From Akkermansia muciniphila ATCC BAA-835 (lineage in GTDB: Bacteria; Verrucomicrobiota; Verrucomicrobiia; Verrucomicrobiales; Akkermansiaceae): a stretch of DNA of 32,000 nt. This document shows positions 1,734 through 31,333 of the stretch, in pieces. The stretch is from positions 1,380,001 through 1,412,000 of the forward strand of contig NC_010655.1 in assembly GCF_000020225.1 (NCBI RefSeq), in the 5' to 3' direction. Numbering within the stretch: position 1 is the first letter of the stretch; each line of letters begins with the position of its first letter. The notes under the pieces were generated by a model. It made no database searches, was not told the DNA's origin, and saw only the letters and a list, made by a program, of their open reading frames with translations. A program made the position numbers and the translations under genes.

Positions 1734-3767
<2,034 letters not shown>

Positions 3768-12735: not shown

Positions 12736-12963
12736 CCCGATTTGTTTGCCGGGATAAACGGCAATCGCAACGGCGGCCTCCGCAGAACGTTCGTCAGGCG
12801 TTCCATACTATCCGGAATTCCTTGTTGATTCCGTTTTTACGGATTGTCTGAAAAACATTTCCTTCTGAAAGCATTCTGCCGGAAGAAGGGGATGTGTTGT
12901 TGCGTGAAGCGAGTAGCCTCCATTTGCCCCTCCCGGCAGCAGGCCCAGGCGTCAGCACCTTCT

Positions 12964-13428
12964 TCAAATTTTTTGTTTCAGGAAGGAATCCATCCATTCC
13001 GGGTTCACCTGTGGCAGAGGTTCGCCTTTGTCATATGCCTCGCAGCACTGGCCGATATACTCCATTTTGATTTTGGAGTATTTCAGGCATTTTTTCAGTT
13101 CCCGAATGCGCGTTTTCATGGCCTGATGCCCTTCCTGCAACATGCGGTAACGTTCGCGCAATGTCGAATTACCTTGGCGAACCAGGTGAAAAAAGCGTTT
13201 GATCTCCTTGAGTTCCAATCCAGAATGCTTAAGGCAAACCAGCCCCAGAAGTTCTTCCATTTCCTTGCGGTGGAAGACACGGCATCCCGCCCCGTTTCTC
13301 GGGATGTCCAGGATTCCTTCTTCTTCAAAAAAACGCAGATTGGACGGCGTGATGCCTGTCAATTCCGAGACTTCCGAAATGGAAAGGCACATGTCTTTCT
13401 GTTCTCCAAGTTCTGATGCGTCTTGCAT
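12964..13428 (-). CDS. MerR-family transcriptional regulator (NmlR/AdhR-like)
   Basis: MerR HTH: LSISEVSELTGITPSNLRFFEEEGIL, followed by a coiled-coil dimerisation helix. An alternative start at 13392 (MCLSISEV...) would put the Cys of LVCLKHSGLELKEI near residue 53. Confidence 0.85.
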   Translation of the reverse strand: MQDASELGEQKDMCLSISEVSELTGITPSNLRFFEEEGILDIPRNGAGCRVFHRKEMEELLGLVCLKHSGLELKEIKRFFHLVRQGNSTLRERYRMLQEGHQAMKTRIRELKKCLKYSKIKMEYIGQCCEAYDKGEPLPQVNPEWMDSFLKQKI

Positions 13429-14796: not shown

Positions 14797-16125
14797 TTGA
14801 GCCATGATATGGTTATGCCCTTAATCGTGGGACAGGAATGGCGGAGGAGAATTTCCCGCATGCAGTGGCTGCTGAATGCCGTGCTGGCGGTGGAGTGCCT
14901 TAGCATGCCTTTTTTTGCCGCCGGGGCGGTAGCTGGGATGGTCTGGTACGGAGGACGCAGGATGGGGGCTGACTGGGGCTGGCTGGCGGGAGGCGCCCTT
15001 GCCGCCGCAGGTTTATTTTTGGCGGTGTGGGGGTGGCTGCGGCTCCGGGGCCGTTTTTTCAGCAGGCGTGATACGGCGGCCTTTTTGGATGAACAGCTGG
15101 GGTTGCATGCGGCGTTGAGCGCCGGTGAGGAATGGGGCAATGCCGTGGAGGCAGGGGAAAGCTCGGTACGGGGGAATTCCGTGCTGCGGATACGTTCCGC
15201 CTGGTGCCTGGCCTGGCTGGCGGGAGGCGCGGTTCTTATGGCTTGCGGGGCTTTTTTGCCGTTGCCCGCGCCGCAAGCCGTAGGGCAGCTTCCGGATTTG
15301 CCGCCCGTTCTGGCCCGGGTGGGGGAAGTCCTGGACCGCCTGGCGGAGATGGAGAGCGTGGATAATAAGAGCCTGGAGCCTTTCCGGGAGCAGTTGGAGG
15401 ATTTGAAAAGAATGCACCGGAATGAGATGTATTCCCATGCCGGACTGGAAGCGGCGGATGCCCTGAAGGGGAAAACGGCAGCGGCCGTTGCCGGATTATC
15501 CAATCAGATGTATCGGACGGATTCCGCCCTTTCCCTGCTGGACAGTCTGAATGGAGCGTCCAGCCCGGAGGCGATGCAGTCCCTTCAGGAGGCGTTGACG
15601 GGAATGGAGTCCCTCGCCCTGCAGCCGGGCGGCATCATGAGCCGCCAGCTCCAGGAGCTGGAGGCTTCCCTGCCTTCCCGGCAGATTGATCCGGAGACGG
15701 CCCTCCGTCTGCGGGAACAGCTGGAACGGGCCGCCCAGCAGCTGCGGAGCATGTGCGGGCAGTGCGGCATATCCCTGATGGCGTCTCCGGATGACCGTAC
15801 CGTGATGGAAGCCGGGCAGGGAGAGGGAAGTGAACCCGGACGAGGAGGAACGGGGCGTGGACGCGGGGACGCTCCCCTTGCCTTTGAGATGGAAGAGCGC
15901 CCCCGGCTTGACACGGTTTCCAGACGGGCGGTTCATGAGGACTTGAGCCGCGCCGCTCTGGGGGAAGCTGCGGGGGTGGAGTCGGCGGCTCCCTCCCCGG
16001 AAGGGGCTGGAAATGGACTGGAACACGGCGGCCGGGGGGCTCGTCCGGCCCGCGGTGGAGATGCCGTGTGGTCTGATTGCCTTACTCCTCAGGAACAGTC
16101 AGCCCTGAAGGAAATTTTCAGATAG
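14797..16125 (+). CDS. Membrane-anchored coiled-coil / low-complexity protein of unknown function (possibly DUF4175-like)
   Basis: Two N-terminal TM helices (LLNAVLAVECLSMPFFAAGAVAGMVWY, WLAGGALAAAGLFLAVWGWL) are followed by a third hydrophobic segment. Then comes a long Glu/Leu/Gln-rich helical region and a Gly/Arg-rich tail. The start is uncertain: TTG at 14797, or ATGs at 14809, 14815 or 14860. Its 3' end overlaps the convergent VWA gene by 8 bp. Confidence 0.55.
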   Translation: MSHDMVMPLIVGQEWRRRISRMQWLLNAVLAVECLSMPFFAAGAVAGMVWYGGRRMGADWGWLAGGALAAAGLFLAVWGWLRLRGRFFSRRDTAAFLDEQLGLHAALSAGEEWGNAVEAGESSVRGNSVLRIRSAWCLAWLAGGAVLMACGAFLPLPAPQAVGQLPDLPPVLARVGEVLDRLAEMESVDNKSLEPFREQLEDLKRMHRNEMYSHAGLEAADALKGKTAAAVAGLSNQMYRTDSALSLLDSLNGASSPEAMQSLQEALTGMESLALQPGGIMSRQLQELEASLPSRQIDPETALRLREQLERAAQQLRSMCGQCGISLMASPDDRTVMEAGQGEGSEPGRGGTGRGRGDAPLAFEMEERPRLDTVSRRAVHEDLSRAALGEAAGVESAAPSPEGAGNGLEHGGRGARPARGGDAVWSDCLTPQEQSALKEIFR

Positions 16126-18697
16126 ATTGATTGTTTTCTCCTGAAGGCCGGGAGCGCGTACCCCCCTGCCGCGGTTGTCCCCGGGGAAGCAGGCCGGTCC
16201 TGGTAAACAGAGCGTCCAGAACAAGGAGGACGCAGGTGCTCCACAGCAGGATGGGACGGAGTTGGAGGCTTGTTCCGGGCCTCGGTTCCCGGAAAATGGA
16301 GGGAAGGTCCATCCTTTCCCTGCCTCCGGTCCGGTTCACCAGGTCCAGGAAAGCGTTGCCGGATTCAGGCGGCATGGCCCATTCCGGGTCCACCTGCTGG
16401 CTGACAGGGCCGAAGGGGATAACGCTGCCGCCGATGCGGACCGCGCCCCGCGCCATGACTCCGTGCGGGAGGGGAAAGCTGCACTGGAATATTCCCGGCT
16501 GCAGGTGTTCCCAGATACCGTTTTGTGTACGGGAGCTTTCTTTTCCGGAGAGTTCCAGGGATATTTCCGGCATGCGTTCCGCCAGGCGCGGGATGTTTTC
16601 CTCACTGTAGTAAAGGCGAATCCGTAACCGGTCTCCTGCCGTGTCCGCCCGCACGGAGTATCCCTGTGGGGGATTTTTCCTGTTGAGCCACCGGGCCAGG
16701 GTTTGGATAAGGTCTCCGTAGCTATCCCATTGCTGGATGTTTTTTCCGAGTTCTCCTCCCATGGCGAACGTAACGGCGGCCGTCCGTCCCGTTCCCCTGT
16801 TCCAGAAGGAGACCAGGGGCGCCGCGTTTCCGTCTTCCGTTACGCAGGCTGCTGTTGCTCCATTCCTTAAATAACACAGGTTATAACCGTCTACGGCAGG
16901 GGGCCATTCCGGCTGGCCGGCTGCAATTTGAAGCCAGCCAGCCGTGCCGCGCAGGAGGGTACGTTCCCTGATGAAGGCGGCCCGGGCCACACTGACGGTT
17001 TCCTGTGCAAAGATGCTGGGGATATCCCCCGGACGGTCGCAGAAGAAGATGCGCCCCCGTCCCAATTCCGCTATTTCCCTGAGCAGTCCGGCATCGGCAC
17101 TTTTTTCCGTTCCCAGTGCGATGACGCTTACGGTAACCCCTTCCTTAACCATTTCTTTCAGAGTTTCCCGGTAGTCGGCAGGTTCTTCGGAATCGTCAGC
17201 ATCTGCAAAGAGGAGCAGATGCCGTGTTCCGGCCACGGAACGTTGCAGTTCCTGCCAGCCCGCTTTCAGCCCGGCGCCGATGAAGATTCCTCCGCCCATG
17301 GAGGCAATCCTGGAGACGCTGGATATCATTTTCTTCCGGTTAGGGCCCAGACTGCTTAGCGTGACAATAGGGTGCGGTTCGCTGTCCACGGCGTGGACGG
17401 AGATGAGATCCTGGTCGGACAACAGGGAAATGGTCTGGCAGGTTCCGGCATTGGCCAGATCCATTTTCGTCTTTCCTCCGGGAACGGAACAGGACATGGA
17501 TCCGGAACGGTCCAGAACGATGCTCATGGCCGTCATGAGCTTCATCTTGTCCTTCTTCATTTCCATGGAAACGGGGAGCAGTTCGTCAATGGGGGAGGAG
17601 AAGTATCCGCCGGAGCCGAAACTATGCCTGCCCCCGCACATGAGCAGGCCGCCGCCCTGTTCCCTCACGTAATAGTCCAGGGCATGCAGAAAGTCCGGCG
17701 GGACGGAGGATGCGGAGAGGTTGTTGATGATGACCAGCCCCACGCCGGAGAGGTGGCGGGCATCAAGCTGGTTCAGGCCGGACGGTTGTTGGACGCGGAA
17801 TCCCTGCGCTTCCAGGAAAGGCGCCAGGGGGTCGCGGTCGTAGCCGGAGAGCAGCAGGACGCCGTTTCCTCCCGTCACTTCAAGGAAGCTGACGGCACGG
17901 TTGTTTTCAGGGATTGGATCGTTTTGCGGCGTTATGGTCATTTCATAAGCGGAACAGCCGGGTGTGGAGAGCCTGTCCGCCAGCTGCACCGTGGCTTTGC
18001 CGTTGAGCAGGGTAGCCGTCCCCCGCAGCGGAGCCCCTCCGTTTTTGCTGATTTGCCACGGAACGGTGATGGCCGGGCCGGGAGGGCCTGCCAGGGTTGC
18101 TTCTAAAATAAAGGCTTCGCCGGGCCGGATACGCGCCGGGGTTCGGATTTGTTCTATGCGGATGTCCGCTTCCCGGAAGGTGACGGACAGGCGGTAGTCC
18201 ACCGGAATCCGGGACTGGATGAGCTGTTCCGCCGCCTGGTCCAGCGGCGTGGTGGGCCAGCCGTCCGTCAACATCAGGATGCGGTTCGTCCGGTTCGGGG
18301 ACATCAGGGCCATGGTATAGGCCAGGGCCTGTTCCATGTCCGTTCCGGCGGTTCCCCCGGCAAAGACGGGGTCTCCGCGTCCCCGGAGCACGGCGGATTG
18401 CGCGAAATCCACCAATCGGACGCGGTCCCCGGCATGTTTGTGCCGTTCCAGAATAGCCTGGATTTCCTCTGCCCCGGCTGCCGGAATTCCCGCCGTGGAA
18501 TTTGATCGGTCCACCAGCACCCACAAGTCCATGCCTTTGCCGCCCCTGTCAAGGGCAGGCTGAGCCAGGGCCAGCAGCAGGCAGGCCTGCAGAAGGAGGC
18601 GCAGGGGGGAGGCCAGGCGCAGACGCCTGTATTTCCAGCCTGCCGCCAGAAGCAGGGGGATCAGGAAGAACCATTCCGGGGTGTTGAATTGAATCAT
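16118..18697 (-). CDS. BatA_N - VWA - GATase1-like (DUF1355-type) - VWA multidomain membrane protein
   Basis: 859 aa. The N-terminus MIQFNTPEWFFLIPLLLAAGW is of the aerotolerance-regulator (BatA_N) type. VWA domain 1 has an intact MIDAS (VLVDRSNSTAG, MLTDGW). A GGGLLMCGGRHSFGSGGY segment is typical of the amidotransferase-like fold. VWA domain 2 also has an intact MIDAS (IVLDRSGSMS). There is a C-terminal TM helix. Its start overlaps the upstream stop (ATGA at 18694-18697). Confidence 0.85.
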   Translation of the reverse strand: MIQFNTPEWFFLIPLLLAAGWKYRRLRLASPLRLLLQACLLLALAQPALDRGGKGMDLWVLVDRSNSTAGIPAAGAEEIQAILERHKHAGDRVRLVDFAQSAVLRGRGDPVFAGGTAGTDMEQALAYTMALMSPNRTNRILMLTDGWPTTPLDQAAEQLIQSRIPVDYRLSVTFREADIRIEQIRTPARIRPGEAFILEATLAGPPGPAITVPWQISKNGGAPLRGTATLLNGKATVQLADRLSTPGCSAYEMTITPQNDPIPENNRAVSFLEVTGGNGVLLLSGYDRDPLAPFLEAQGFRVQQPSGLNQLDARHLSGVGLVIINNLSASSVPPDFLHALDYYVREQGGGLLMCGGRHSFGSGGYFSSPIDELLPVSMEMKKDKMKLMTAMSIVLDRSGSMSCSVPGGKTKMDLANAGTCQTISLLSDQDLISVHAVDSEPHPIVTLSSLGPNRKKMISSVSRIASMGGGIFIGAGLKAGWQELQRSVAGTRHLLLFADADDSEEPADYRETLKEMVKEGVTVSVIALGTEKSADAGLLREIAELGRGRIFFCDRPGDIPSIFAQETVSVARAAFIRERTLLRGTAGWLQIAAGQPEWPPAVDGYNLCYLRNGATAACVTEDGNAAPLVSFWNRGTGRTAAVTFAMGGELGKNIQQWDSYGDLIQTLARWLNRKNPPQGYSVRADTAGDRLRIRLYYSEENIPRLAERMPEISLELSGKESSRTQNGIWEHLQPGIFQCSFPLPHGVMARGAVRIGGSVIPFGPVSQQVDPEWAMPPESGNAFLDLVNRTGGRERMDLPSIFREPRPGTSLQLRPILLWSTCVLLVLDALFTRTGLLPRGQPRQGGTRSRPSGENNQSI

Positions 18698-20421
18698 GGG
18701 CGCAGGGAGATGTCTGGGACGGGAGGAAGCCAGGAAAGAATCAGGGCCAGGAACGCCAGCGCCAGCCAGAGGGGGGCCAGAGGGTCACGTTTCATGTGCC
18801 GGAGCGCCTCTTCATGGGGCTGGGGAAGTCCTGTGTCAAACGTGGAGCAGTGGGAAAAATCTCCCATCCGGGCGTCGGAGAACCAGACGGAGCCTTGGAA
18901 CAGGGGTGTTTTCCCTTCTCCGGGGGGGAAGATTTCCACATATCCGGTTTCTTCCGGGAGCCTGCCGTTAAAGACAGTTTCACGGCGTTCTCCCCCGGGC
19001 ATGGTTTGAATGAGTTTTCCGCCTGCGGGCATGGATAAGAGAGTTCCTCCGGGAAGGTTGCCGTAATGTGTTCCGGGCAGATTCTCCTGTACGGATTGCA
19101 TGAATCTGCGGGTCATGAGCAAGGGCGCCGGAACGCGGTCCGCATTGGATTTTTCCCAGGGCCAGTTGAGGAAAAGGCGTTTCCCGTCCACCCAGGCCAG
19201 GGGGGATTCCCCCTGCCAGAGCAGGACTCCGGCTTTTTCCCCCGGCTTCATGGAACCGATGGAGGGGATGAGCAGGCCGCTCCAGTTCAGCCCGTCAGTC
19301 AGCGGATGCCGTTCCGCCGTGACAGCGCCGTAAGATGGTTTGCCGCTGGCTGCAAATATGATGGCCGCTTTTCCGGGGGGACTGGCATTTTCCGTTTTTC
19401 CCTCCAGCAGGAGGAGGTCGGGATCTGAGCCGTCCGGGACGGGGGAGAATCCCGGCAGGCTATTGATGATATTGCGGAAGATTTTTCCGGATTTTTCTGG
19501 AATTTCCATGCTGACGGCGACGGGGGCGGGAGCGGAGCGGACCAGCAGGAGCTCATTGTCCGCCGGGAAGGCGTCCGTCGGGAGCCGGAGCACGGCCTTT
19601 CCGCTTTCAGGAGGGAGGCTGTATTCAAATTCCGTGACAGTTCCTGGATTCAGGAACAGGGAACGCCGGGCAGGAGGACGCCCGCTTTCCGTATGGATGG
19701 AGATTTCGCTCCGAAGAGGGGATGGGCTATTGTTTTTAACGGCAATCCTCCAATGGCCGGGGCCGGCGGCCTCCACCGGGGTTATTCCCGCAAAACCCGC
19801 ATTTTCCAGAGGTTTCCCTACACCCCGTGCGGATTGGCCGGCGGGAACCCTCCGGGCAGTGGATGTAATCAGGCGCGTGATTCCCGTTGGCCCGGCAACG
19901 GCTGTGGCGGTGCGCAGGGCAGGGGCCAGGTCATGTGTTCCTTCGCGCGGCTGCCAGAGATCCAGGGCGCGCAGGGCCTGGCGGACGGACGGCCCCCGGT
20001 AGAGCGGCTGTCCGGAAGCCCTGCTGCCCATGAGAACCCATGTGACCGGGATTCCGCACCGGAGGATGGTGTCCATGTCTTCGGAGACGGCATTCACGGC
20101 TTCTTGACGAAAGGGGGCCATATTTGCGGAATCATCCAGAATGAAGACTACGGTCTGGCCGGAGCCTTTGCCGGGCCAGACAGGAGCGGCCAGAACCCAG
20201 GTAAGCAGGAGGACGGCCAGAATTTGCATCCAGAAGGAGCGTGATATGCGTAACCTGTCCCAGGCATTACCCTCATGGGCCTCCGGAGCCAGAGCTTCCA
20301 ACAGGAAGAGCGTGGCCGTGGCCTGTGTTTTTGTTTTGTGCTGGAGGAAATGGATGGCGGTGATGAGGGGGATGGCCAGAAGCGCCCAGAACGCGGTCGT
20401 GTTGGTGAAGTGGGGGAGCAT
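18694..20421 (-). CDS. BatA_N (aerotolerance-regulator N-terminal) domain membrane protein with a VWA-like region
   Basis: The preferred start at 20421 (MLPHFTNTTAFWALLAIPLITAIHFL) matches the BatA_N pattern; the track's start at 20469 would overlap the DUF58 gene. A second TM helix follows, then VVFILDDSANM, a degenerate DxSxS motif. Confidence 0.8.
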   Translation of the reverse strand: MLPHFTNTTAFWALLAIPLITAIHFLQHKTKTQATATLFLLEALAPEAHEGNAWDRLRISRSFWMQILAVLLLTWVLAAPVWPGKGSGQTVVFILDDSANMAPFRQEAVNAVSEDMDTILRCGIPVTWVLMGSRASGQPLYRGPSVRQALRALDLWQPREGTHDLAPALRTATAVAGPTGITRLITSTARRVPAGQSARGVGKPLENAGFAGITPVEAAGPGHWRIAVKNNSPSPLRSEISIHTESGRPPARRSLFLNPGTVTEFEYSLPPESGKAVLRLPTDAFPADNELLLVRSAPAPVAVSMEIPEKSGKIFRNIINSLPGFSPVPDGSDPDLLLLEGKTENASPPGKAAIIFAASGKPSYGAVTAERHPLTDGLNWSGLLIPSIGSMKPGEKAGVLLWQGESPLAWVDGKRLFLNWPWEKSNADRVPAPLLMTRRFMQSVQENLPGTHYGNLPGGTLLSMPAGGKLIQTMPGGERRETVFNGRLPEETGYVEIFPPGEGKTPLFQGSVWFSDARMGDFSHCSTFDTGLPQPHEEALRHMKRDPLAPLWLALAFLALILSWLPPVPDISLRP

Positions 20422-20449
20422 GGCTTGGGGGGAGAGTAAAGGGTGCGGT

Positions 20450-21319
20450 TCAGGAGAGTTCCACGGCACCCTGCCGTAATGCTTCTCCGGACAGGGCTTC
20501 CGTCAGCGTCCCCTTGCAGGGGATGCGGGCAAGAACGGCCTGGCGGCGCAGGCAGGCAGAAATCCAGAGTTCAAAATGGGCGGCGTAGGCGCGGGCGTAC
20601 CTCCGGGACAGGGAAGGGGTGATGAGCTGGCGGCGCAGGTGGCCGGATTCACAGTTTTTGAGTCTGGCGTTGCCGGCGGGGAGTTCCGCTTCTTCCTGCA
20701 GCGTGGGTGCCAGGATGACGGACATCCCTTTTAAGGAGGCCATGGTTTCCAGAAGGTTGTCCGGTTCCCCCGGGTAGAGCAGGTCGGAGATGAAGATTTT
20801 CATTCCATTGGGGCGCCAGATGGAAATGGAGGGCATGGATTCATCCGGGGGAAGGCTCTGGATCTGCGCTTCCCATTGGCCGGAGAGAACATCTTCCTGG
20901 TCCAGGGGGATGATACGGCGCCCTTTCACCGCATGAATCTTCACCTGGGCTCCCGTTCCGATGGCGGAGAGCAGGCAAAATTGAAGCAGGCCCCGCGTGC
21001 GTGCCGCGCGCTCTTCGTGAAAAAACATGGATTCGGAAACATCTACCGCCACGTCTACCTGCGGTGACAGTTCCGCCCGGAAGATTTTCATGGTGAGCTG
21101 GCCGGTTCTGGCGTACGCCGCCCAATGGATATCCCGCGGGTCATCCCCCCACTGGTAGGAACGGCTTCCCTGGAAATCGATGGAGTTGCCTGCTCCCGTT
21201 CCCTCCCAATGGCCCTGTGTTCCTTTCCAGGCGCAGCAGGAAAAGGGCAGCCGGAGACGGCGCGCCGCCTGTTCGGCGTCCGGCTGGATCACCTGGCTGG
21301 GGAAGGGGAAAGAGGTCAT
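20450..21319 (-). CDS. DUF58 domain protein
   Basis: DUF58 core: GAGNSIDFQGSRSYQWGDDPRDIHWAAYARTGQLTMKIFRAE...VDVAVDVSESM. The start at 21319 (MTSFPFPSQ...) avoids a 71-nt overlap with the upstream permease gene that the track's start at 21424 would create. Confidence 0.85.
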   Translation of the reverse strand: MTSFPFPSQVIQPDAEQAARRLRLPFSCCAWKGTQGHWEGTGAGNSIDFQGSRSYQWGDDPRDIHWAAYARTGQLTMKIFRAELSPQVDVAVDVSESMFFHEERAARTRGLLQFCLLSAIGTGAQVKIHAVKGRRIIPLDQEDVLSGQWEAQIQSLPPDESMPSISIWRPNGMKIFISDLLYPGEPDNLLETMASLKGMSVILAPTLQEEAELPAGNARLKNCESGHLRRQLITPSLSRRYARAYAAHFELWISACLRRQAVLARIPCKGTLTEALSGEALRQGAVELS

Positions 21320-21353
21320 GGGGATGGGGGGGAGGCAAAACGGCGGGCAAGAA

Positions 21354-22802
21354 CTATTCCCGTTCCCGGCGGGAATTTCCCGGTTTCTGGAGAGGTTCGG
21401 GGGATGCGTTCCGGAATATGTCAAACCAGTGTTTGCTGGTGAGAGCCAGCACCGCTATTCCGGCAGCCAGGTCCATCAGGCTGAACAGGGAAAATTTGCT
21501 GAAAGCCGGCAATGTTTCTTGTCTCAAAAGTTCAGATAAATACCCTCCGGGGAGAAGGGGGACGGACAGATTCACGCCCCACAGCACGTTTTGCACCAGG
21601 CATAGGATGAGGCAGATCATGGTGTACGTCAGTAGGGTATTGTTTTTCAGTTTTTCCCAGAACGGTTTCAGAAGCATGGCCGGCATGGTGATGGCGTACC
21701 AGCCGCCTGCTGCGAGGCAAAAGAGCCGTTGAGGGGACTGGAATTCGGGGACGGATGCCATGCGGTCTATCAGATACACGGCGATAGCCGCCATGGCGCA
21801 GAGCAACAGGGTGAACAGGACGCTCCCCGGCATGCCGGGGAGGAACAGCAGCTGCTGGAGCCTGGAGAATCTTTTGTTTTTCATTTGCTCCATGTGGATG
21901 GGAAGGAGGCGGGCAGGCGTGTTCAGGTTGATAATCATCAGGAAAATTCCGTAAACCATGACAAAAATGGAATTTCCGGTCATGATGTTTTGAATGGAGC
22001 CGCTTGCGTTTTCCAGAAAGGGGAGGGGGAGGATGGAGGCTGCGAAAAAAGCCAGCAGAAGCTTCCGCAGGGGGGCGGCCGTGTTTTGTGCGGCAGGGGA
22101 GAACCATTCCCTTGCCAGCAGAAGCAGGGATGAGATGACCAGGAAGGCGTCCGCCAGGACGAGGAATATCAGGAGAACGCCTTCTCCCGCTCCATCCCGG
22201 AAAAAATCCAGCTCCGCATGGTTGCCTCCCAGGGTCAATATACCGATTCCCATGAGGGAGAAAGCGATGATGCGCATCAGAGAGGGCATGGCGGACGCCC
22301 ACAGGGTATATGCAGTCAGCATGCCGGAACCCAGGTAAAGGAGGAAAAACAGGGTTACATCCTGTACCAGGTCAATTTCTCCGTAGTAATACCGGATGAG
22401 AAAGAAGGGCAGGGAGATAAAGGCAATCAGCAGGGATTGGGCCATGAAGGATATCCATTTTCCCAGCACGATGCGGCCTGCGCTCTGCCTGGTGAGCAGC
22501 AGCAGTTCGTTGTTTCGGGTGAGCAGTTCGTTCCTGATGGAGGTGGAGGCCCTCAGCGGCATGATGAAGAGCAGGGCGACGACCATGGTAACCCAGAAGA
22601 TGATCTGGCATCCGTCGGGGCTGACGAAGGGCTCCCCGTCAAGAGGATTGATGATGAAGCTGAACAGGAAGAAAAAGGAGAGCAGGGAGGGCACTATGCT
22701 GACCAGGAGGATGAATGACGGCGTTCTGAGACCCTGGCGCAATTCCTTGACCAGAGCGGAGGGCATCCATATGGGGAAATCAAGAGAGCGGGTGGTATTC
22801 AT
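21354..22802 (-). CDS. Polytopic membrane protein, presumed permease partner of the adjacent ABC ATPase
   Basis: 482 aa and hydrophobic throughout (roughly 10-12 predicted helices by eye). Its start overlaps the ABC ATPase stop (ATGA at 22799-22802). No specific family was recognised. Confidence 0.75.
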   Translation of the reverse strand: MNTTRSLDFPIWMPSALVKELRQGLRTPSFILLVSIVPSLLSFFFLFSFIINPLDGEPFVSPDGCQIIFWVTMVVALLFIMPLRASTSIRNELLTRNNELLLLTRQSAGRIVLGKWISFMAQSLLIAFISLPFFLIRYYYGEIDLVQDVTLFFLLYLGSGMLTAYTLWASAMPSLMRIIAFSLMGIGILTLGGNHAELDFFRDGAGEGVLLIFLVLADAFLVISSLLLLAREWFSPAAQNTAAPLRKLLLAFFAASILPLPFLENASGSIQNIMTGNSIFVMVYGIFLMIINLNTPARLLPIHMEQMKNKRFSRLQQLLFLPGMPGSVLFTLLLCAMAAIAVYLIDRMASVPEFQSPQRLFCLAAGGWYAITMPAMLLKPFWEKLKNNTLLTYTMICLILCLVQNVLWGVNLSVPLLPGGYLSELLRQETLPAFSKFSLFSLMDLAAGIAVLALTSKHWFDIFRNASPEPLQKPGNSRRERE

Positions 22803-23806
22803 GAGGCGGGGATGGATGGGGTTTCCTGGGAAGAGGCGGGATTCTGCCGCGGGGCCGGTTCCCCGCTGCCGTGGATAAGGATGTCCACAAAAGCTTCTTC
22901 CAGACGGCGTTCGCTACGGTGGAAATCAATTACGGGGAGGTCGAGGCAGAGCTGGCGGAGTTCCGCAGCCACAGCTTCCGGTTCGCAGGAGACGAAGGCG
23001 GCCACTACTTTCTGTTGCTGTACATGGCGCACTTTCCATCCCCGGCGGAGGGCCAGCCATTCCTCCAGTGAGGCGGTGTCGTCTCCGGCGGTGCGGATTT
23101 CAAAGGCGTATCCGGATTCCGTCTGGCGGTGCAGCAGGTCTTCCATATTGCCGTCATGGATGACGGTTCCTGCATTCATGAAGATGAGGGCGTCGCACAT
23201 TTCCCCCAGTTCCGAGAGAATATGGGAGCTGATGAGCAGCGTTTTTCCACGCGCTTTGAGCAGATGCACCAGATTTTTGAATTCAAGGCGCGCTTTGGGG
23301 TCCAATCCTGCCGCCGGTTCGTCCAGAATGAGGAATTGCGCGTCGCTGATCAGCGTACGCGCCAGGCAGAGCCGCTGCGTCTGCCCTTTTGAAAGTTTAT
23401 CGATCATCTGGTTCTGGAGGCCGGCCAGTTCCGTGAAGTCCATCACTTCGTCCACAGCGTCCAGTAAACGTTCCCTGCCCATGCCGCAGGCCCTGGCGAA
23501 AAAATCCAGATATTCCCGGACGCTGGTGTTTTTATAGGGGTGGAAATAGTCCGGCATCCATCCGATGCGGGAACGTGCCAGTTCGGGATGATCCACAACA
23601 TCGGCCCCGTTGAGCCTGATGTGGCCGGAGTCAGGCATTTCCAGCGTGGCCAGCATGCGCATGAGGGTGGTTTTGCCGGCTCCGTTGGAGCCAATCAGGC
23701 CGACGACCTGGCCCTGGCGGATGACGAAGGAGGCATTGTTGACGGCTTTCAGCGGACCGAATGATTTGGACAGTCCGGAAACTTCCAGCAGTAGGGGCGT
23801 ACTCAT
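22799..23806 (-). CDS. ABC transporter ATP-binding protein (ABC-2/exporter-like) with a ~100-aa C-terminal extension
   Basis: Walker A GSNGAGKTT, signature LSKGQTQRL, Walker B FLILDEPAAGLD, H-loop SSHIL. Confidence 0.93.
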   Translation of the reverse strand: MSTPLLLEVSGLSKSFGPLKAVNNASFVIRQGQVVGLIGSNGAGKTTLMRMLATLEMPDSGHIRLNGADVVDHPELARSRIGWMPDYFHPYKNTSVREYLDFFARACGMGRERLLDAVDEVMDFTELAGLQNQMIDKLSKGQTQRLCLARTLISDAQFLILDEPAAGLDPKARLEFKNLVHLLKARGKTLLISSHILSELGEMCDALIFMNAGTVIHDGNMEDLLHRQTESGYAFEIRTAGDDTASLEEWLALRRGWKVRHVQQQKVVAAFVSCEPEAVAAELRQLCLDLPVIDFHRSERRLEEAFVDILIHGSGEPAPRQNPASSQETPSIPAS

Positions 23807-23808
23807 GG

Positions 23809-25392
23809 TTATTCGTGCGGCAGGGGAGTGACGGGGCCGGAGACGGTGACGGAGGTTTTTTCCCAGTTAATGGAAGGCAGGGTGGGGATGGGGCCCAGTT
23901 CCCCGCCCGCCGGTTCCATGGATGCCCGGAAGTGCAGCGGGGGAGGGCCGTCCGGTTCTTCTTCCGGCAGGAACGGGGATGCCTGCATTTTACGGCCGGG
24001 AGGCAGTTGTTCAAGAATCCAGTATTTTCCGGAGGCGTCCCGGTAGGTGAGTCCGTTCAGGGTTCCGGGAAAGGTGCTTTGGAATACGGGCGCCCCGCCG
24101 GGGCGCGTCTCCAGCAGAGTGAGCGCCGCCCGTGTGGAAACCGGCATGATGATCCGGTGCTGGAGCGTGGAGCGGCTGGTGAACCATTTTCCCCCGCATT
24201 CTTCCCCTTGCCGCGCCGCGCCTTCTATGGGTTTTTCCTTAATGGAGCCGCGCGCCTTGCTCATGCGTGCTCCGGTGATGCCGGCGTTTTCCGGCAATTG
24301 AAATGTATTGTTCAGCAGGACGGAGGTCTTGCAAATCTGGTTTTGGGAGATCAGGGCGGAGTGGTCCTGCGGATTAACCTGGATAAGAACTTCCCGGCTG
24401 CCCGTCCCTCCCGTGCCGTCTCCGGCCAGAATCAGGAGCAGCAGAAGAAGGGAAAATCCCACGGAAATGGCCGGGATCAGCAGGAACAGCCTTTGCCTTT
24501 TGCCTGCGGGAGCCCACAGGAACAGGCTCAGCGGGCCGACAAGCACGGCAAAGATGATCAGCCCCAGCCCCAGCGTGGTGGATGGGGCTGAGAAATAATA
24601 GGGAGCGGCGGAGGTAATCTCCGGGTAACAGTTTCCCTTTTCGTGGAGGTTGATGAATTCCTTCAGTTTCAACTTTTTTTCTTCTTCCGGCAGGCCGTCC
24701 AGGGACGGAACGTGCAGAATGCGCCCGTTTCCCAGCAACCGGGTGGAAACGGAAAGCCCCCTGTCACCGATGAGCCACAGGTTTCCCCCTCCCGTCACCC
24801 ATTGGCGGATGGCTTTGCGGTGGGCTTCGTCAAAATGGGTACGGTAGGTTTTTTCCGGGATGATGAGGCAGGTCTGCCCCTCGTACATCCGGTAGTCGGC
24901 TGGCCATTTCATCAGGTCGCAGGAGGAAACGGCCGCGTTATAGGAAGATTCGGAAAGCAGGTGCCAGTCCGCCGGAGCGCCTTCCTGGATAACCGCGACC
25001 ATTTTCCTGTGCTCCGTATCCGTGGGAATGGGGGAAGCTCCTTCATGGTTTTCCTTCACTTCGTAGACGAGATTGTAGGAGAGGAGAGGGTAAACGACTG
25101 CATGAACGCTTTCCCGGGCCGGAATGAAGAACGGATAAGTATGGCTGGTTCCCCTGTTTCCGTTCCACCCTTCATGGAATTGAAGAGTGGCTTTTCTGTC
25201 CGAGCCGGTGGTGTTTTCCAGCTTCACCCGGAGAGGGACGCGGGCGTTGTTCGCGCTGTAGTCAAATGCTTTCTCCACGGAAACGGCGATGGGGGGAGCG
25301 GCGGCCGGTTTTGCGTGGAGCGGGAGAATATTGAATGCCGAAAGAAGGAAGAGGCTGAAGAACAGCCATGAACGGGAGAGAGGGCGGCGCAT
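23809..25392 (-). CDS. Unknown envelope protein: signal peptide, ~270-aa domain, two TM helices, ~190-aa domain (possibly GldG/ABC-auxiliary or DUF4350-like)
   Basis: 527 aa. Signal peptide: MRRPLSRSWLFFSLFLLSAFNILPLHA. The central hairpin of TM helices is LGLGLIIFAVLVGPLSLFLWA / LFLLIPAISVGFSLLLLLLILAG. The WVTGGGNLWLIGD segment resembles amidotransferase-like auxiliary domains. Its stop is 2 nt before the ABC ATPase start. Confidence 0.75.
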   Translation of the reverse strand: MRRPLSRSWLFFSLFLLSAFNILPLHAKPAAAPPIAVSVEKAFDYSANNARVPLRVKLENTTGSDRKATLQFHEGWNGNRGTSHTYPFFIPARESVHAVVYPLLSYNLVYEVKENHEGASPIPTDTEHRKMVAVIQEGAPADWHLLSESSYNAAVSSCDLMKWPADYRMYEGQTCLIIPEKTYRTHFDEAHRKAIRQWVTGGGNLWLIGDRGLSVSTRLLGNGRILHVPSLDGLPEEEKKLKLKEFINLHEKGNCYPEITSAAPYYFSAPSTTLGLGLIIFAVLVGPLSLFLWAPAGKRQRLFLLIPAISVGFSLLLLLLILAGDGTGGTGSREVLIQVNPQDHSALISQNQICKTSVLLNNTFQLPENAGITGARMSKARGSIKEKPIEGAARQGEECGGKWFTSRSTLQHRIIMPVSTRAALTLLETRPGGAPVFQSTFPGTLNGLTYRDASGKYWILEQLPPGRKMQASPFLPEEEPDGPPPLHFRASMEPAGGELGPIPTLPSINWEKTSVTVSGPVTPLPHE

Positions 25393-25416
25393 GGGGGAAG
25401 GGCTGAGGAGGTGTGG

Positions 25417-26442
25417 TCAATGAATTTTTGCGGCGGCCAGGGAATCCGGCAGGGGCTTGTTCTGGGCAGGGATTTCCCTGACCAGGCGGTTGATGACTGC
25501 GGCGGGTGTCTGTCCGTCCAGACGGGCCGTGTGGTTGAGCAGGATGCGGTGCTCCAGCACGGGATGAATAACGGCCTGCACATCCTCAAAGGAGCAGAAA
25601 GCGCGCCCGTGGCGCAAAGCTCGGGCTTTAGCGGCAGCCGCCAGGCCCAGGGCCGCCCGGGGACTGGCCCCGTATTTAACGCCTCCGGAGGCTTCCGATT
25701 CTCCGGGATGCGTAGCGTTGACCAGCCTGCCTATATAGTCCGCCACCACTTCGGGAATGGCTACATTCCGGGCCATTTGCATGAGTTCCTGCAATTCCTG
25801 CGCGTTCAAAACCGGGGATATTTCAGGTTCCACGCCCATTTCCCGGTTGAGGACAATGCGGGCCAGCACATCCGCCGGTGTGCGGTTGACGTTGATTTTG
25901 AAAAGGAAGCGGTCCAGCTGGGCTTCCGGCAGGGGAAAGGTTCCTTCCAGTTCAATGGGGTTCTGGGTGGCAAGCACGAAAAAGGGGGAGGGGAGGGCAT
26001 GGGTCTCTCCCATGACGGTGACGCGGCGTTCCTGCATGGCTTCCAGCAGGGCGGACTGGGTCTTGGGGGAGGCGCGGTTGATTTCATCCGCCAGCATGAT
26101 GTTGGCGAAGACGGGCCCTTCCTGGAAGATGAAGTTTTTTGTTCCGTCCCTTTCCTGAAGAACCGGGGTTCCCGTGATGTCTCCCGGCAGTAGATCGGGT
26201 GTGAATTGGACGCGGCGCGCTGTGATATCCAGTGCCCTGGAGAGGCCTTTGACCAGTTCCGTCTTGCCCAGGCCGGGCAGGCCCTCCAGCAGGATATGCC
26301 CGCGAGCCAGTACGCCAATGAGAACCAGTTCAATGAGATCCTTTTGACCGAACAGGACCTGGTTCATGGCGGCAGCCAGAGCACGGAGCTTTTGCATGGC
26401 GCAGCCAAGTTCTTCCTGAGAGAGGATAGGGGGGGTATTCAT
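25417..26442 (-). CDS. MoxR-family AAA+ ATPase
   Basis: Walker A LEGLPGLGKT, the MoxR-typical RVQFTPDLLPGDITGT, and Walker B IMLADEINRASPKTQSALLEAMQE. The start is ambiguous: 26442 (MNTPPILSQEE, 341 aa) or 26505 (362 aa). Confidence 0.92.
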   Translation of the reverse strand: MNTPPILSQEELGCAMQKLRALAAAMNQVLFGQKDLIELVLIGVLARGHILLEGLPGLGKTELVKGLSRALDITARRVQFTPDLLPGDITGTPVLQERDGTKNFIFQEGPVFANIMLADEINRASPKTQSALLEAMQERRVTVMGETHALPSPFFVLATQNPIELEGTFPLPEAQLDRFLFKINVNRTPADVLARIVLNREMGVEPEISPVLNAQELQELMQMARNVAIPEVVADYIGRLVNATHPGESEASGGVKYGASPRAALGLAAAAKARALRHGRAFCSFEDVQAVIHPVLEHRILLNHTARLDGQTPAAVINRLVREIPAQNKPLPDSLAAAKIH

Positions 26443-26675
26443 GGGAAACTGCCGGATTTCCGCGGCTTTTGGGAAAAAGACCGGGCATTTGTTAGATTTC
26501 TTCATGAACTTATGCCATGCATCCAGAGGGGCTGCAAGCGGAAAGATAGAGGGACCTGTTAATTTTCAGTAATATGAAGAGAAAATACCCTGCGGGGTTT
26601 GAGTGGTAAATGGAATTGCCGCAATATATGTTCCATCTGTTGAAAAAAGAAGGCTTCCTGGCATGTATTATTGTC

Positions 26676-27860
26676 ATGCCTTCCGTATATCCCCCCGGCA
26701 ACGAACGCATTTACGTGGTGGACGCTCTGCGCGGCTTTGCCGTAATGGCGATCATGCTGCTGCATTTTCTTGAACATTTCATCTATAATTCCTATCCCGT
26801 GGCTTCTTCCCCAATGATGGAAGCGGCCAACCAGCAGTTCAAGGAGGTCTTTTTTTTCCTGTTTGCCGGCAAGTCCTACACCATTTTCGCCCTTCTGTTC
26901 GGATTCACTTTTGCGGTCCAGTACCGTAACCAGGCCCGGAAGGGAAGGGATTTTGCGGGCAGGTTTGTCTGGCGCATGTGCCTGCTGGCGGTGTTCGCCT
27001 GCATGAATGCAGCGTTTTTCCCGGGCGGTGATGTTCTGCTGACTTTTTCACTTGCAGGTTTGTTGCTGGTGCCGTGCCGCCGGTTGAAGACATCCTCGCT
27101 GGTGGCTTTGTCCCTGTTTTTCCTGGCCCAGCCGCTGGAGTGGGCCTATGCGGCGGTGCAGTGGATGCATCCGGGTTGGGTTCCTCCCTCCCTGTCTGTT
27201 GCGGAATCGTACGCTTCCTTAAAATCCGCCGTGGATACGGGAAATTTCTGGGTGATGGCCTGGGAGAACCTGACTACAGGACAATGGGCCAGCCTGGCAT
27301 GGGGTATTGAAGCCGGGCGTTTGATGCAGGCTCCGGGTCTGTTCCTGCTGGGGTTTGTTCTGGGGCGCCAGGATTTCTTTTTGCAGAATGACGGAACGGC
27401 TGTGTTCTGGACCCGCGGACTGCTATTTTCCCTGGCCGGGGCCTGTGCATTTTACGTGGTGATGTGCCTGCCGGGGCTGCCGGGGCCTGTGCATACCGTG
27501 TTTAGCATGTGGCACAATGTTTGCTTTACCGGCGTATGGGTGGCCGGGTTCGTTCTGTTGTACCGGCTGGAATATTTCAGGAAAGCGACGGCTCCGTTGC
27601 TGACCTACGGGCGCATGAGCCTGACCAACTATGTTTCCCAGTCCGTGATCGGCTCCCTGATTTTTTTCCCGTATGCACTGGGGCTAGCTCCCTACTGCGG
27701 GTATCTGGCCAGTTTTGTGGTCGGCTTTGCCGCCATGACCGGACAGATATGGTTCTGCCGCTGGTGGCTGGAGCGGCACCGCTACGGGGTGCTGGAAGGA
27801 TTGTGGCACCGGGCGACATGGCTGGCCGCCGGGAAGGTTTCCGCTCCGGAACACCGGTAA
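26676..27860 (+). CDS. DUF418/YeiB-like polytopic membrane protein
   Basis: The start at 26676 (MPSVYPPGNERIYVVDALRGFAVMAIMLLH) matches the family-typical N-terminus. There are multiple TM helices, and the C-terminal WFCRWWLERHRYGVLEGLWHRATW resembles the DUF418 tail. Confidence 0.75.
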   Translation: MPSVYPPGNERIYVVDALRGFAVMAIMLLHFLEHFIYNSYPVASSPMMEAANQQFKEVFFFLFAGKSYTIFALLFGFTFAVQYRNQARKGRDFAGRFVWRMCLLAVFACMNAAFFPGGDVLLTFSLAGLLLVPCRRLKTSSLVALSLFFLAQPLEWAYAAVQWMHPGWVPPSLSVAESYASLKSAVDTGNFWVMAWENLTTGQWASLAWGIEAGRLMQAPGLFLLGFVLGRQDFFLQNDGTAVFWTRGLLFSLAGACAFYVVMCLPGLPGPVHTVFSMWHNVCFTGVWVAGFVLLYRLEYFRKATAPLLTYGRMSLTNYVSQSVIGSLIFFPYALGLAPYCGYLASFVVGFAAMTGQIWFCRWWLERHRYGVLEGLWHRATWLAAGKVSAPEHR

Positions 27861-28233
27861 GAAACGGGGGCCGGCGCAATGATGTTTCCCGATACTTGCG
27901 GGACGCTTTTTAGCGTCTTCTGCCAAAGCCGGTGATTTATCCGGACGGAGGATGCATCCGGTTCCGCAAGGGGCATTTTGGAGAGGAGACATGGAACAGG
28001 GGGCAGAGGCAGGAGGAAAAGGGATGAACGTTTCATGGCGGCGGGAGACATGAAAGCGCGGTATTTTTTGAAGAATGGCTTTCCGGGAGATTTTTTCCAC
28101 AGGGAACGGTCTGTTTTCCTGGGGATGGCGTGCCGCGCCCTCTCCGGTCCGTGTTCCGGCGGCTTTTCCGACGGACTGATGCAGGAGGGGATTCCGTACC
28201 AGATGGCGCTTTTCTTTAAAGGGGAGATGTAGT

Positions 28234-29232
28234 ATGGCATGGTGTATGGAAAGGAGGACGGGCATAGGCGGTTTTTTCGGGCTGGAATTGCCGGAGTACG
28301 GCAATTTCCCGCAATGGCATCCCGGCAGGAGTGTAGCCGTGAATTCCGGCAGACGCGCTTTGGAATATATCCTGCGCCGCCTGGGGGATGTGCGCTGTGT
28401 CCGTGTTCCCCTGTATACATGCCGGACGGTGGTGGAAACGATGGAACGGCTTGGCATTCCCGTGATTACTTACCGCATTGACGAACGCCTGGAACCGGAG
28501 GAACTGCCGGAATTGGAAAAGGGGGAATACCTTTTGTACACCAATTACTTCGGAATCAAGGAGAAATGCGTGGACCGTCTGGCTTCCCGGTATGGCGGCA
28601 GCCTGATTGTGGACAATGCGCTGGCCCTGTATTCTCCGGCCCGTTCCGGAGTGGCCTCCCTGTACAGCCCGCGAAAGTTTTCCGGTCTTCCTGACGGGGG
28701 GATCGCCGTGATGGATGCGGAGCGGTCCTTGCCGGAACCGGAGGAGCGGGACGAATCCCTGCCTGCCGCCGCTTTTTTGCTGGAATGCCTGGAGCATGGG
28801 CAGGAAAGGGCTTCCGCCGCCTGTGAACGGAATGAACGGCGCTTGCGGAATACCCCGCTGCGAAGGGTTTCCCGGCTGACGGAGCGACTGATGAGCGGCA
28901 TTGATTATGAACAGGCGCGGCTGCTCCGCATGAATCATTTCCTTTTTCTTCATGAAAGGCTGGGCCATTTGAACCGTCTTTCCGTGGAGGCGGATTCCTT
29001 GTCCGCTCCGTGTTATTATCCGTTTTGGACAGCTTTTCCCGAGCTGAGGAACGTGCTGATTGATAAGCGCGTTCTGATGCCTCTCCTGTGGCCGGAGGTA
29101 TTGGAACAGGCCCCTGCCGGCAGCCTGGAACGGAAACTGGCGCTGCATCTTCTGCCGCTTCCTGTGGACCAGCGCTGCGGGCCGCAGGACATGGAACGCA
29201 TCGCCCGGATTGTGGAGGCATTCTATTCCTGA
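28234..29232 (+). CDS. Short DegT/DnrJ/EryC1/StrS (WecE-like) aminotransferase-family protein
   Basis: 332 aa. The segment AVNSGRRALEYILRRLG...VRVPLYTCRTVVETM matches the family N-domain. LYSPRKFSGLPDGGIAV fits the PLP-lysine context (S-x-x-K...GG). The C-terminal LLPLPVDQRCGPQDMERIARIVEAF resembles the WecE C-terminus as I remember it. Confidence 0.6.
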   Translation: MAWCMERRTGIGGFFGLELPEYGNFPQWHPGRSVAVNSGRRALEYILRRLGDVRCVRVPLYTCRTVVETMERLGIPVITYRIDERLEPEELPELEKGEYLLYTNYFGIKEKCVDRLASRYGGSLIVDNALALYSPARSGVASLYSPRKFSGLPDGGIAVMDAERSLPEPEERDESLPAAAFLLECLEHGQERASAACERNERRLRNTPLRRVSRLTERLMSGIDYEQARLLRMNHFLFLHERLGHLNRLSVEADSLSAPCYYPFWTAFPELRNVLIDKRVLMPLLWPEVLEQAPAGSLERKLALHLLPLPVDQRCGPQDMERIARIVEAFYS

Positions 29233-29310
29233 AGAGAAGGGAGGATTATTTTGTTAGACAGTTGGATAAGACGTTGACGATACGTGAATGAATGTTCTAA
29301 CATTTTTGGT

Positions 29311-29994
29311 ATGTCCGACTGCCTTTCCTCTCTGGGCTATCCTTTCCGTGGAAGGCCCATGGTTTTTGTCTTTTCCGTCATGATGGTATGGGGCATGTTC
29401 CTGGCGGCCCGGGATGTTCTCATCGGATGGATTGCCGCCTTTTGTTTTCTGCTGCCTTTCATGTGCGCCTTTTTCATGAAAATGGTGAGGCAGTCCGCCA
29501 TGGGAGAAGAGGATATCTGCCCCTTTCCTGAACTGGATGAATGGCTTGACTCCCTCATGCTGCCTTTTGTCCGGCTGGTGGTGTGCATCATCGTTTCCTT
29601 CCTTCCTTTCGCCGTGTATGCGCATACTGCGGCCTGGGCGGCGGATACTCCCCTGGCGTGGCTGTTCCTGGCGGCGGGTGTGATTTACTTTCCCGGCGTA
29701 TTCATGAGAACCTCCGTTCGGGAACGTTTTTCCGGTCTTTCTCCCGTGGGCTGGTGGGGGCTGGTCAGAAGGGCTCCCTTTTCCTATGCCGGGTTACTTG
29801 GCGCCATATGCGCCGGGGGATGGATCATCCTGAACCTTCCTTCAGGGCCTTTGATGGATTTCGCCATGGTGCCCGTGAAGCTGTATGTCGCTTGCGTGTT
29901 GATGAATATGTGCGGACTGTTCATGCTCAAGCATGAATTTGCCGGGGAGGAAGAGGTCGGCAGCTTTTCCCCTTCCGGGCCTGCGGCCTCGTGA
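29311..29994 (+). CDS. Hypothetical polytopic membrane protein
   Basis: About 5-6 hydrophobic helices. The ATG at 29311 is preferred over the track's GTG at 29284. No family was recognised. Confidence 0.55.
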   Translation: MSDCLSSLGYPFRGRPMVFVFSVMMVWGMFLAARDVLIGWIAAFCFLLPFMCAFFMKMVRQSAMGEEDICPFPELDEWLDSLMLPFVRLVVCIIVSFLPFAVYAHTAAWAADTPLAWLFLAAGVIYFPGVFMRTSVRERFSGLSPVGWWGLVRRAPFSYAGLLGAICAGGWIILNLPSGPLMDFAMVPVKLYVACVLMNMCGLFMLKHEFAGEEEVGSFSPSGPAAS

Positions 29995-30031
29995 TGCTGC
30001 CGCCTTTCCGGCGGGCCGGGAACAGGTGAGT

Positions 30032-31084: not shown

Positions 31085-31333
31085 GACAGGGCAGCGGTTG
31101 TGACGGTATCCAACATAAGATGAGGCTGGTGAAAATCAAGTTATCTTTTCCTGTGCGGCCGGGAAAAGTATTCTACTGAAGAAACTCTTTCCGGAAGAGG
31201 GAATGCGGCAAAGTCTGTCCTCTTCTGAACACAGGGGAGTGCCGGAAATGTCTTATCCGGCAAAGGCTGCCTGTTCCGTGGGGGGATTCCGGCGAGGTGC
31301 CGGACCTCCGCCCCGGAGGCGGGCCTCCATTTG

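Follow-up and report, generated by a model that had tools for sequence, protein, structure and literature searches.

Mutants in bacterial operons of the Bat and Cmd type have been associated with effects on aerotolerance, on the integrity of the envelope and on virulence, and the molecular job of the MoxR-VWA modules that these operons encode is a standing problem. The modules combine a MoxR ATPase of the AAA_3 family, a DUF58 protein, and proteins with a BatA_N double transmembrane (TM) segment and a VWA domain carrying a metal-ion-dependent adhesion site (MIDAS), all encoded in one operon. MoxR-DUF58-BatA/VWA operons occur in Bacteroides, Borrelia, Leptospira and Rhizobium (Cmd being RL3499-RL3502 of Rhizobium leguminosarum), and no ATP-binding cassette (ABC) component is listed for them (PMC5700661). 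The cmd mutants have envelope and cell-shape defects and the bat mutants an aerotolerance phenotype, while for the BatA-type protein BB0173 the VWA domain has been demonstrated experimentally to be periplasmic (PMC5700661). Here we analyze a related operon of Akkermansia muciniphila ATCC BAA-835, contained in a window of 32,000 nucleotides (contig NC_010655.1, positions 1,380,001 to 1,412,000), in which the genes of a probable ABC-2-type transporter lie inside the module. In full-text literature searches we came across no MoxR/DUF58/BatA operon described as containing an ABC transporter, and no mention of the guessed locus tags Amuc_1164-1169.

The core of this system is of the Bat/Cmd kind, and to it are added four further conserved genes, two of which (A and C) have no Pfam model. 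As in Bat and Cmd the large domains are predicted to be periplasmic, the location found for BB0173. The differences are nevertheless considerable. Protein C, the ABC ATPase (D) and the probable ABC-2 permease (E) separate MoxR (B) from DUF58 (F), and there is an additional orphan membrane protein (A). The BatA_N protein G of the window lacks a MIDAS, having no DxSxS motif, while protein H contains two VWA domains and a GATase1_like domain. There are no TPR/SH3 proteins corresponding to BatB/C/E, and no BatD; TPR, SH3 and BatD give no match on any of the eight proteins in Pfam or NCBIfam. The reading we favor, to which we give somewhat better than even chances, is of a single conserved and vertically inherited eight-gene system of the inner membrane and periplasm, a derived, Verrucomicrobia-specific form of Bat/Cmd with the ABC-2 unit as a fixed element between MoxR and DUF58. 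We think it very probable that the eight genes form one functional unit; the specific division of labor among the components that we set out below is put forward only tentatively.

Seven tightly packed open reading frames (ORFs) occupy 16118-26505 on the minus strand (Table 1), where an initial annotation of this DNA had placed them. The recomputed junctions from B to H are 24 nt, 2 nt, an ATGA overlap, 34 nt, 28 nt and a second ATGA overlap, the pattern described there; the two ATGA overlaps (D/E and G/H) are each 4 nt long. That annotation took the system to comprise seven genes. These are real, but an eighth conserved gene, A, which lies on the plus strand outside the coordinates given, had been missed. 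All eight products are exact matches of deposited A. muciniphila proteins, and six of them are ACD04989-ACD04994 of ATCC BAA-835, with ACD04989.1 corresponding to gene H, ACD04990.1 to gene G and ACD04991.1 to gene F. The deposited proteins support the starts that give a 289-aa DUF58 protein and a 575-aa BatA protein. A scan of the window found no intrinsic terminator between the seven genes. The promoter of the operon is presumed to lie in the divergent intergenic region upstream of MoxR because of the layout of the genes; a scan of that region for the sigma-70 consensus found no site.

Table 1. The genes of the A. muciniphila operon, their positions in the window and the occurrence of each family among 44 related loci with full flanks.
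Feature	Coordinates	Strand	Product or description	Full-flank loci with the family
Gene A	14815-16125 (442 aa from TTG at 14797)	+	436-aa membrane protein	31/44 upstream of MoxR, plus 2 Akkermansia loci convergent
Gene B	25417-26505	-	MoxR AAA+ (MRP-subfamily), 362-aa ORF; likely start ATG 26442, giving 341 aa	42/44
Gene C	23809-25392	-	527-aa orphan-family protein	42/44
Gene D	22799-23806	-	335-aa ABC ATPase, ABC-2/ABCA/NosF/GldA class, C-terminal extension	
Gene E	21354-22802	-	482-aa probable fused (tandem) ABC-2-type permease, ~12 TM helices	
Gene F	20450-21319	-	289-aa DUF58 protein, ATG start	38/44
Gene G	18694-20421	-	575-aa BatA_N protein, ATG start	38/44
Gene H	16118-18697	-	859-aa double-VWA membrane protein	36/44
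Intergenic region	26506-26609		divergent, between the MoxR ORF and a plus-strand DUF418 gene; presumed operon promoter region	

Relatives of the operon were found by a degenerate-pattern scan with the permease profile in a collection holding one genome per species. This gave 414 stretches, of which the best 80 were kept as loci. Hidden Markov models (HMMs) of the eight families were then mapped on 84 loci, using envelope coordinates of the best match for each family. Counts were taken over the 44 of the 84 loci that have full flanks, with at least 6 kb upstream and at least 8 kb downstream of the permease; these span Akkermansiaceae, Verrucomicrobiaceae and Opitutaceae. Among the 44 the genes of the operon are always collinear. 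The order A-B-C-D-E-F-G-H is found in loci L001-L004 and L085 and in the HMM mapping of the 84 loci, and three unrelated assemblies in which the permease is only 30-35% identical show the succession of MoxR, an orphan protein of ~545 aa, ABC ATPase, permease, DUF58, BatA and VWA. In distant relatives the junctions are overlaps or gaps of no more than 75 nt.

The initial annotation had allowed that the ABC genes might be absent from the equivalent operon of most relatives, which would have marked them as a chance insertion. What is found is the reverse: in 42 of the 44 loci MoxR and C lie next to the ABC pair, and in 36-38 DUF58, BatA and VWA are kept as well, so the ABC genes are an integral part of the operon rather than a chance insertion. 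The suggestion that the arrangement could be typical of the lineage is borne out, since 79 of the best 80 loci bear Verrucomicrobiota names; it is thus common to the phylum and not peculiar to the genome of A. muciniphila. In trees of both the permease and the ATPase the groups fit the taxon labels (Akkermansia, Opitutaceae, Verrucomicrobiales), and this agreement suggests that the operon has been inherited vertically.

At breaks in the operon MoxR remains together with C-D-E, as in loci L040, L047, L075 and L084, which contain B-C-D-E set in unrelated flanks. The block formed by MoxR, C, the ABC ATPase and the permease is the most tightly linked part of the operon, which argues that the bond of MoxR with the transporter unit is no looser than that with DUF58 and the VWA proteins. 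These results bear on the proposal that two independent systems merely share a transcript, in which an ABC-2 efflux pump made of C-D-E landed in an early verrucomicrobial Bat-like operon and has been hitch-hiking there since. It is true that the Bat/Cmd operons of other phyla work without an ABC unit (PMC5700661), that the ABC pair D-E stands alone in two full-flank loci on different branches of the tree (L043 and L066), and that the closest fold matches of the permease include the mycobacterial efflux pump 8k1o. Yet the least conserved members, C and E at 25-35% identity, remain in the same gene order across the phylum, so that the order has outlasted family-level divergence; at the breaks it is C-D-E and not DUF58, G and H that MoxR accompanies; and start/stop overlaps cross the boundary between the modules, as at E/F in L001 and L003. 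Moreover, protein C has a near-invariant cytoplasmic loop (see below) for which there is no obvious role in a simple pump. We therefore regard this proposal as unlikely.

The MoxR protein matches Pfam AAA_3 (3e-62) and AAA_lid_2 (2e-17), and its closest solved structure is 2r44 (6e-71). Across 64 sequences, conservation is 100% for both Walker A (GLPGLGKT) and Walker B (LADE). Its orthologs are 339-341 aa in length, and for this reason the internal ATG is probably the true start. The DUF58 protein F (Pfam DUF58, 2.5e-14) is encoded in the same operon as MoxR but three genes away. It has no TM segment and is predicted to be a soluble VWA-like protein, with the sequence DVSES at residue 93; the aspartate and both serine residues of the DxSxS motif are 100% conserved in 67 sequences.

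MoxR proteins are chaperones, NorQ/NorD acting in cofactor insertion and others maturing dedicated complexes (PMC9976466, PMC3893208). The pairs RavA-ViaA, NorQ-NorD and CbbQ-CbbO each combine a hexameric MoxR AAA+ ATPase with a VWA/MIDAS adaptor, and in the present system DUF58 would be the adaptor. In those pairs a known client enzyme is encoded nearby, whereas here there is no conserved client and most of the VWA domains are predicted to be periplasmic. A quite different role for the MoxR-VWA combination would lie in anti-phage defense or biological conflict, as a system of the MoxR-vWA type. MoxR does exceed the Pfam bpMoxR threshold (54 bits vs 27) and the ABC ATPase D gives generic matches to PADLOC ATPase models. 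However, the AAA_3 scores are far higher, PADLOC gives no match for the other seven of the eight proteins, and Pfam detects no beta-propeller or effector domain in the operon. The trees suggest vertical, phylum-wide inheritance, and a GC profile of 0.57-0.64 along the operon does not clearly point to a foreign origin. The PADLOC result led us to reject the defense hypothesis, and we consider it the least probable of the alternatives.

Assignments of domains in the initial annotation held for AAA_3, ABC_tran, DUF58, BatA on G, and VWA with GATase1_like on H; a BatA domain on H, also proposed, is not significant in Pfam. Protein G matches Pfam BatA at 4e-6 and has TM segments at 8-26, 59-77 and 547-565, with a large domain between. 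Protein H matches VWA (5e-15), GATase1_like (8e-9) and, for the first VWA domain, VWA_CoxE (3e-6). It is ordered as an N-terminal hydrophobic hairpin, VWA 1, GATase1_like, VWA 2, a C-terminal domain, a TM segment and an arginine-rich tail. The MIDAS motifs of VWA 1 (D63-x-S-x-S) and VWA 2 (D396-x-S-x-S) are both 100% conserved in 45 sequences. The N-terminal ~280 aa of H and G are homologous in a profile comparison (hhalign 89%, E=2e-6), and given this homology and the shared topology the N-terminus of H appears to be BatA_N-like. Each of the two proteins has an N-terminal hairpin and a C-terminal TM segment followed by a basic tail, so the bulk of both is predicted to be periplasmic. Of all the components H is conserved best, with 46-50% identity over the phylum, and the 120 matches listed in the search for its homologs are all close verrucomicrobial relatives.

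The ABC ATPase D matches Pfam ABC_tran (3e-31), and its Walker A, LSKG, Walker B and H-loop motifs are 98-100% conserved. Its nearest solved relatives are ABCA3/4/7/1, NosF, Rv1218c and LptB, placing it in the ABC-2 or type V neighborhood. Like A and C, the permease E of the window has no Pfam or NCBIfam match, although 5 of 30 members of its family do match Pfam ABC2_membrane_2/3, down to 5e-6. The AlphaFold2 model of E (predicted local distance difference test score, pLDDT, 84) is all-helical with ~12 TM helices, and the N-terminal motif VKELRQGLR is invariant in the family. The best Foldseek matches of the model are the fused ABC-2 pump 8k1o and NosY, with probability to 0.97 and target TM-score ~0.5. 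The operon contains no gene for a substrate-binding protein, making it unlikely that the ABC unit is an importer.

The 8k1o structure is that of the Rv1217c-Rv1218c efflux pump. In that pump, as probably here, two ABC-2 permease halves are fused in one protein of ~500 aa and the ATPase is a separate protein; Rv1218c is among the matches of D in the PDB. It is the top Foldseek match of E but a weak one (E=0.26, TM-score 0.28), and the pump has no auxiliary, MoxR or VWA partners. The features predicted for our system, an ABC-2 (type V) fold, an ATPase like NosF and a periplasmic partner of its own, recur in the NosDFY(L) complexes (7o0y, 7o17, 7qba, 7znq), which provide a precedent for an ABC-2 unit that drives periplasmic assembly rather than simple pumping. 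The likeness is at the level of the fold only, the permease here is a fused protein of ~12 TM helices, C does not have the beta-helix of NosD, and NosZ and NosL are lacking. Conversely, the Nos system has no MoxR, DUF58 or VWA proteins.

That E and D have NosY and NosF among their best matches, in structure and in sequence, raises the question of whether the operon might encode a machine for maturation of, or cofactor insertion into, an enzyme of the periplasm or membrane. In that case the ABC-2 unit would act as NosDFY does in the supply of copper to nitrous oxide reductase, and the MoxR/VWA part in the manner of NorQD or CoxDEF. The chaperone precedents for MoxR proteins (PMC9976466, PMC3893208) and the strictly conserved MIDAS motifs are in keeping with this. 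However, no candidate for a client enzyme is conserved next to the operon. The flanks are lineage-specific, L001 and L085 having cytochrome oxidase genes there, L002 a kinase and L075 ClpC, and the system is near-universal in the sampled lineages regardless of their metabolism. We judge this explanation to be improbable, and a little more so than that of the hitch-hiking pump.

The third member of the putative transporter, protein C, was described in the initial annotation as bitopic. It has instead three hydrophobic segments, a signal peptide or anchor and a TM hairpin. The AlphaFold2 model (pLDDT 82.6) has a beta-sandwich at 35-112 following the signal peptide or anchor, an alpha/beta domain at 131-249, the TM hairpin at 272-325 and an all-beta region at 329-520. 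The positive-inside rule predicts that the large domains are periplasmic and that the loop between the helices of the hairpin (WAPAGKRQRLF) is cytoplasmic. This loop is near-invariant, conforming to A-x-x-G-K/R-R-x-R-L-F with conservation of A294, R299, R301, L302 and F303. The profile of the family, run against 1.84 billion representatives, recovers 690 relatives at E<=1e-30. Many of these are 700-1087 aa in length with variable N-termini, and share a conserved core at profile positions ~153-530. Comparison of the whole model with the PDB by Foldseek gave generic beta-sandwich matches only (TM-scores <0.2), a search of the profile against PDB sequences gave nothing, and profile-profile comparison found no similarity to the other families of the operon.

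Members of the C family resemble DUF4350 and ABC_transp_aux (the GldG family), and on that basis C is probably a periplasmic auxiliary subunit of the ABC-2 unit with a divergent domain of the DUF4350/GldG class. In the two members for which coordinates were checked the DUF4350 match covers the alpha/beta domain. We note separately that the C-family proteins P0247, P0253, P0262 and P0291, among others, have long and variable N-terminal extensions, with the core beginning at the alpha/beta domain. When ten long relatives were scanned, eight had no Pfam match and two had a faint match to DUF4350 over the conserved core.

A precedent for an ABC-2 unit that has its own periplasmic partner is provided by GldA, GldF and GldG. 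Their layout is the one predicted for D, E and C: an ATPase, a permease of the ABC-2 type and a periplasmic auxiliary, GATase1-like in class, that is held by a membrane anchor. Of the NCBIfam models D matches GldA best (189.5 bits, 8.9e-56), and among 66 diverse members of the C family one matches ABC_transp_aux (0.097) and 18 match DUF4350, with no further family recurring. It might be supposed from this that the operon encodes a surface-motility or secretion system equivalent to that of the gliding Bacteroidetes. But the score of D is less than half of the equivalog cut-off (402.6 for TIGR03522), so D is not an equivalog of GldA, and the scores of this comparison in general lie below the family cut-offs. 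The window contains no other gld genes, and the single 6-TM permease of the GldF type is replaced by a fused 12-TM protein. Here the order is auxiliary-ATPase-permease in the context of a MoxR operon, and C is set apart from auxiliaries of the GldG type by the TM hairpin at its center and by an extra all-beta domain. Equivalence with a gliding system is also made less likely by the description of A. muciniphila as non-motile. Such equivalence is very improbable in our estimation.

Gene A is homologous to the gene that lies directly upstream of MoxR in other loci (E=2e-34 for L001 and 8e-19 for L003). The protein has three predicted TM segments and a long helical C-terminal region of low complexity, and an alignment of 14 sequences shows that the family ends in the conserved motif GGxAVW...LTPxExxALKxFFK. 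The family has no Pfam match, and profile-profile comparison revealed no similarity to the other families of the operon. Only in Akkermansia (L005-L007) is the gene at the far end of the operon on the opposite strand, and in several lineages it is missing or relocated. In the window genes A (+) and H (-) converge at 16118-16125, with an overlap of 8 nt at their stop codons; this convergence is specific to Akkermansia, gene A preceding MoxR elsewhere. A 461-aa gene following H in L002 was considered as a possible gene A, and has no similarity to it.

On the topology predicted for the eight proteins, MoxR, DUF58 and the ABC ATPase are cytoplasmic, and the bulk of C, G, H and A is periplasmic and anchored in the inner membrane. 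Both ATPases and the MIDAS sites of DUF58 and of the two VWA domains of H appear intact by motif. No outer-membrane component was found, so that the earlier suggestion of an envelope-spanning assembly is not supported. In the favored reading the ABC-2 unit would comprise ATPase D, the fused permease E and the DUF4350/GldG-like auxiliary C, in a manner resembling GldAFG and NosDFY. The D2-E complex with C would function as an exporter or mechanotransducer, either delivering or reshaping a component of the envelope or driving movements of the periplasmic domains of C. A partner or product would be captured in the periplasm by the MIDAS domains of H, for which G and A would provide the scaffold. 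Assembly, remodeling or gating of the membrane complex would fall to a MoxR hexamer acting from the cytoplasm, with DUF58 serving as VWA-like adaptor; plausible points of contact are the tails of G and H on the cytoplasmic side and the invariant loop of C that is predicted to lie there. By analogy with the phenotypes of the cmd and bat mutants, the role of the system is probably in envelope maintenance or biogenesis. A more specific version is that of a machine with two motors, in which MoxR is dedicated to the ABC-2 complex, gating or assembling it through the C loop together with DUF58, while the transporter feeds or moves the scaffold of G, H and A. We offer this as a possibility that we would not at present rate as likely.

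Several observations weigh against the integrated eight-gene system. The loci were selected through the permease, so the survey shows that the permease comes with MoxR and VWA genes and not the converse; for the same reason it does not give the frequency of MoxR-DUF58-BatA-VWA operons without an ABC unit. The loci that contain only B-C-D-E are closely related, their flanking gene being 74-87% identical between them, so they constitute one narrow clade and represent about one evolutionary event. The similarity of E to NosY is confined to the fold, with Foldseek E-values above 0.1, and the profile of E finds no match among PDB sequences. All 18 of the DUF4350 matches in the C family (the best at 6.9e-5) fall below the Pfam cut-off of 30.4 bits, and for this reason we treat the relation to DUF4350 as a lead and not as membership of the family. 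The protein C of the window itself has no match to DUF4350 or to any other Pfam family.

The hard-wiring of the module, in one lineage, to a probable ABC-2 transporter with a GldG/DUF4350-like partner points to an export or mechanotransduction step in the function of Bat/Cmd-type modules, and this variant adds parts that can be tested, namely two orphan families and an invariant cytoplasmic loop. If true, the reading with two motors would give the first mechanistic handle on Bat/Cmd-type modules in bacterial envelopes. A. muciniphila is a gut commensal of medical interest, and the biology of its envelope bears on colonization and on its immunomodulatory surface components. Functional tests are feasible because a genetic system exists for this organism (Davey et al. 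2023, as cited in PMC12570417).

A number of variant loci were observed. A clade with a stand-alone MoxR-C-ABC-permease unit and no nearby DUF58, BatA or VWA genes includes L040, L047, L071, L073, L075 and L084, and L081 has two tandem copies of this unit. In the loci with only B-C-D-E a gene of ~370 aa follows the permease, and was considered as a substitute for DUF58, G or H. It has no similarity to any family of the operon and is retained only through the close kinship of this clade; from its sequence we take it to be a soluble protein of the aldose-epimerase type. Genes G-H stand alone in Opitutaceae TAV1 (L086). In Roseibacillus a 5-kb insert of unrelated metabolic genes lies between DUF58 and BatA, and a TPR gene after DUF58 is found only in Roseibacillus L033. 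Locus L001 has an additional 273-aa gene between DUF58 and BatA (12402-13223), with start/stop overlaps on both sides and a faint match to Peptidase_M50 (E=0.009). Six loci, including some metagenome-assembled genomes (MAGs) of Prosthecobacter, have two or three tandem genes for fused ABC-2 permeases in the operon (L037, L042, L053, L064, L068 and L076). In L002 a large Pkinase gene lies directly downstream of the operon.

Locus L019 (contig CAYQAQ010000216.1), the one locus of the best 80 without a Verrucomicrobiota name, carries the operon and is labeled Brocadiaceae (Planctomycetota). Its permease is nested in a verrucomicrobial clade, so this MAG is probably mis-binned. Some protein clusters at 90% identity mix neighboring genes, combining MoxR with the 527-aa protein, DUF58 with BatA, and gene A with threonine aldolase, and several matches (P0085, P0098, P0101 and P0110) unite domains of adjacent genes. 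These presumably reflect fused or read-through gene calls in public assemblies.

Elsewhere in the window, 60-5679 contains kdpA, kdpB and kdpC; the 375-aa ORF after them matches the N-terminal sensor domain of KdpD (PF02702) alone, with no match to a histidine-kinase domain. The longest ORF of a Ser/Thr protein kinase gene (8909-11317, 802 aa), which has TPR-like repeats and a TTG start, extends into a gene for an extracytoplasmic-function (ECF)-type sigma factor at 8421-9017. On the far side of the operon, the region 27684-31889 contains several ORFs of 197-350 aa without a Pfam match, the exception being a Band_7/SPFH protein at 30032-31084. Two long ORFs on opposite strands overlap there (28216-29148 on the minus strand and 28234-29232 on the plus strand), and the AT skew of the region is strongly negative, at -0.23 to -0.33.

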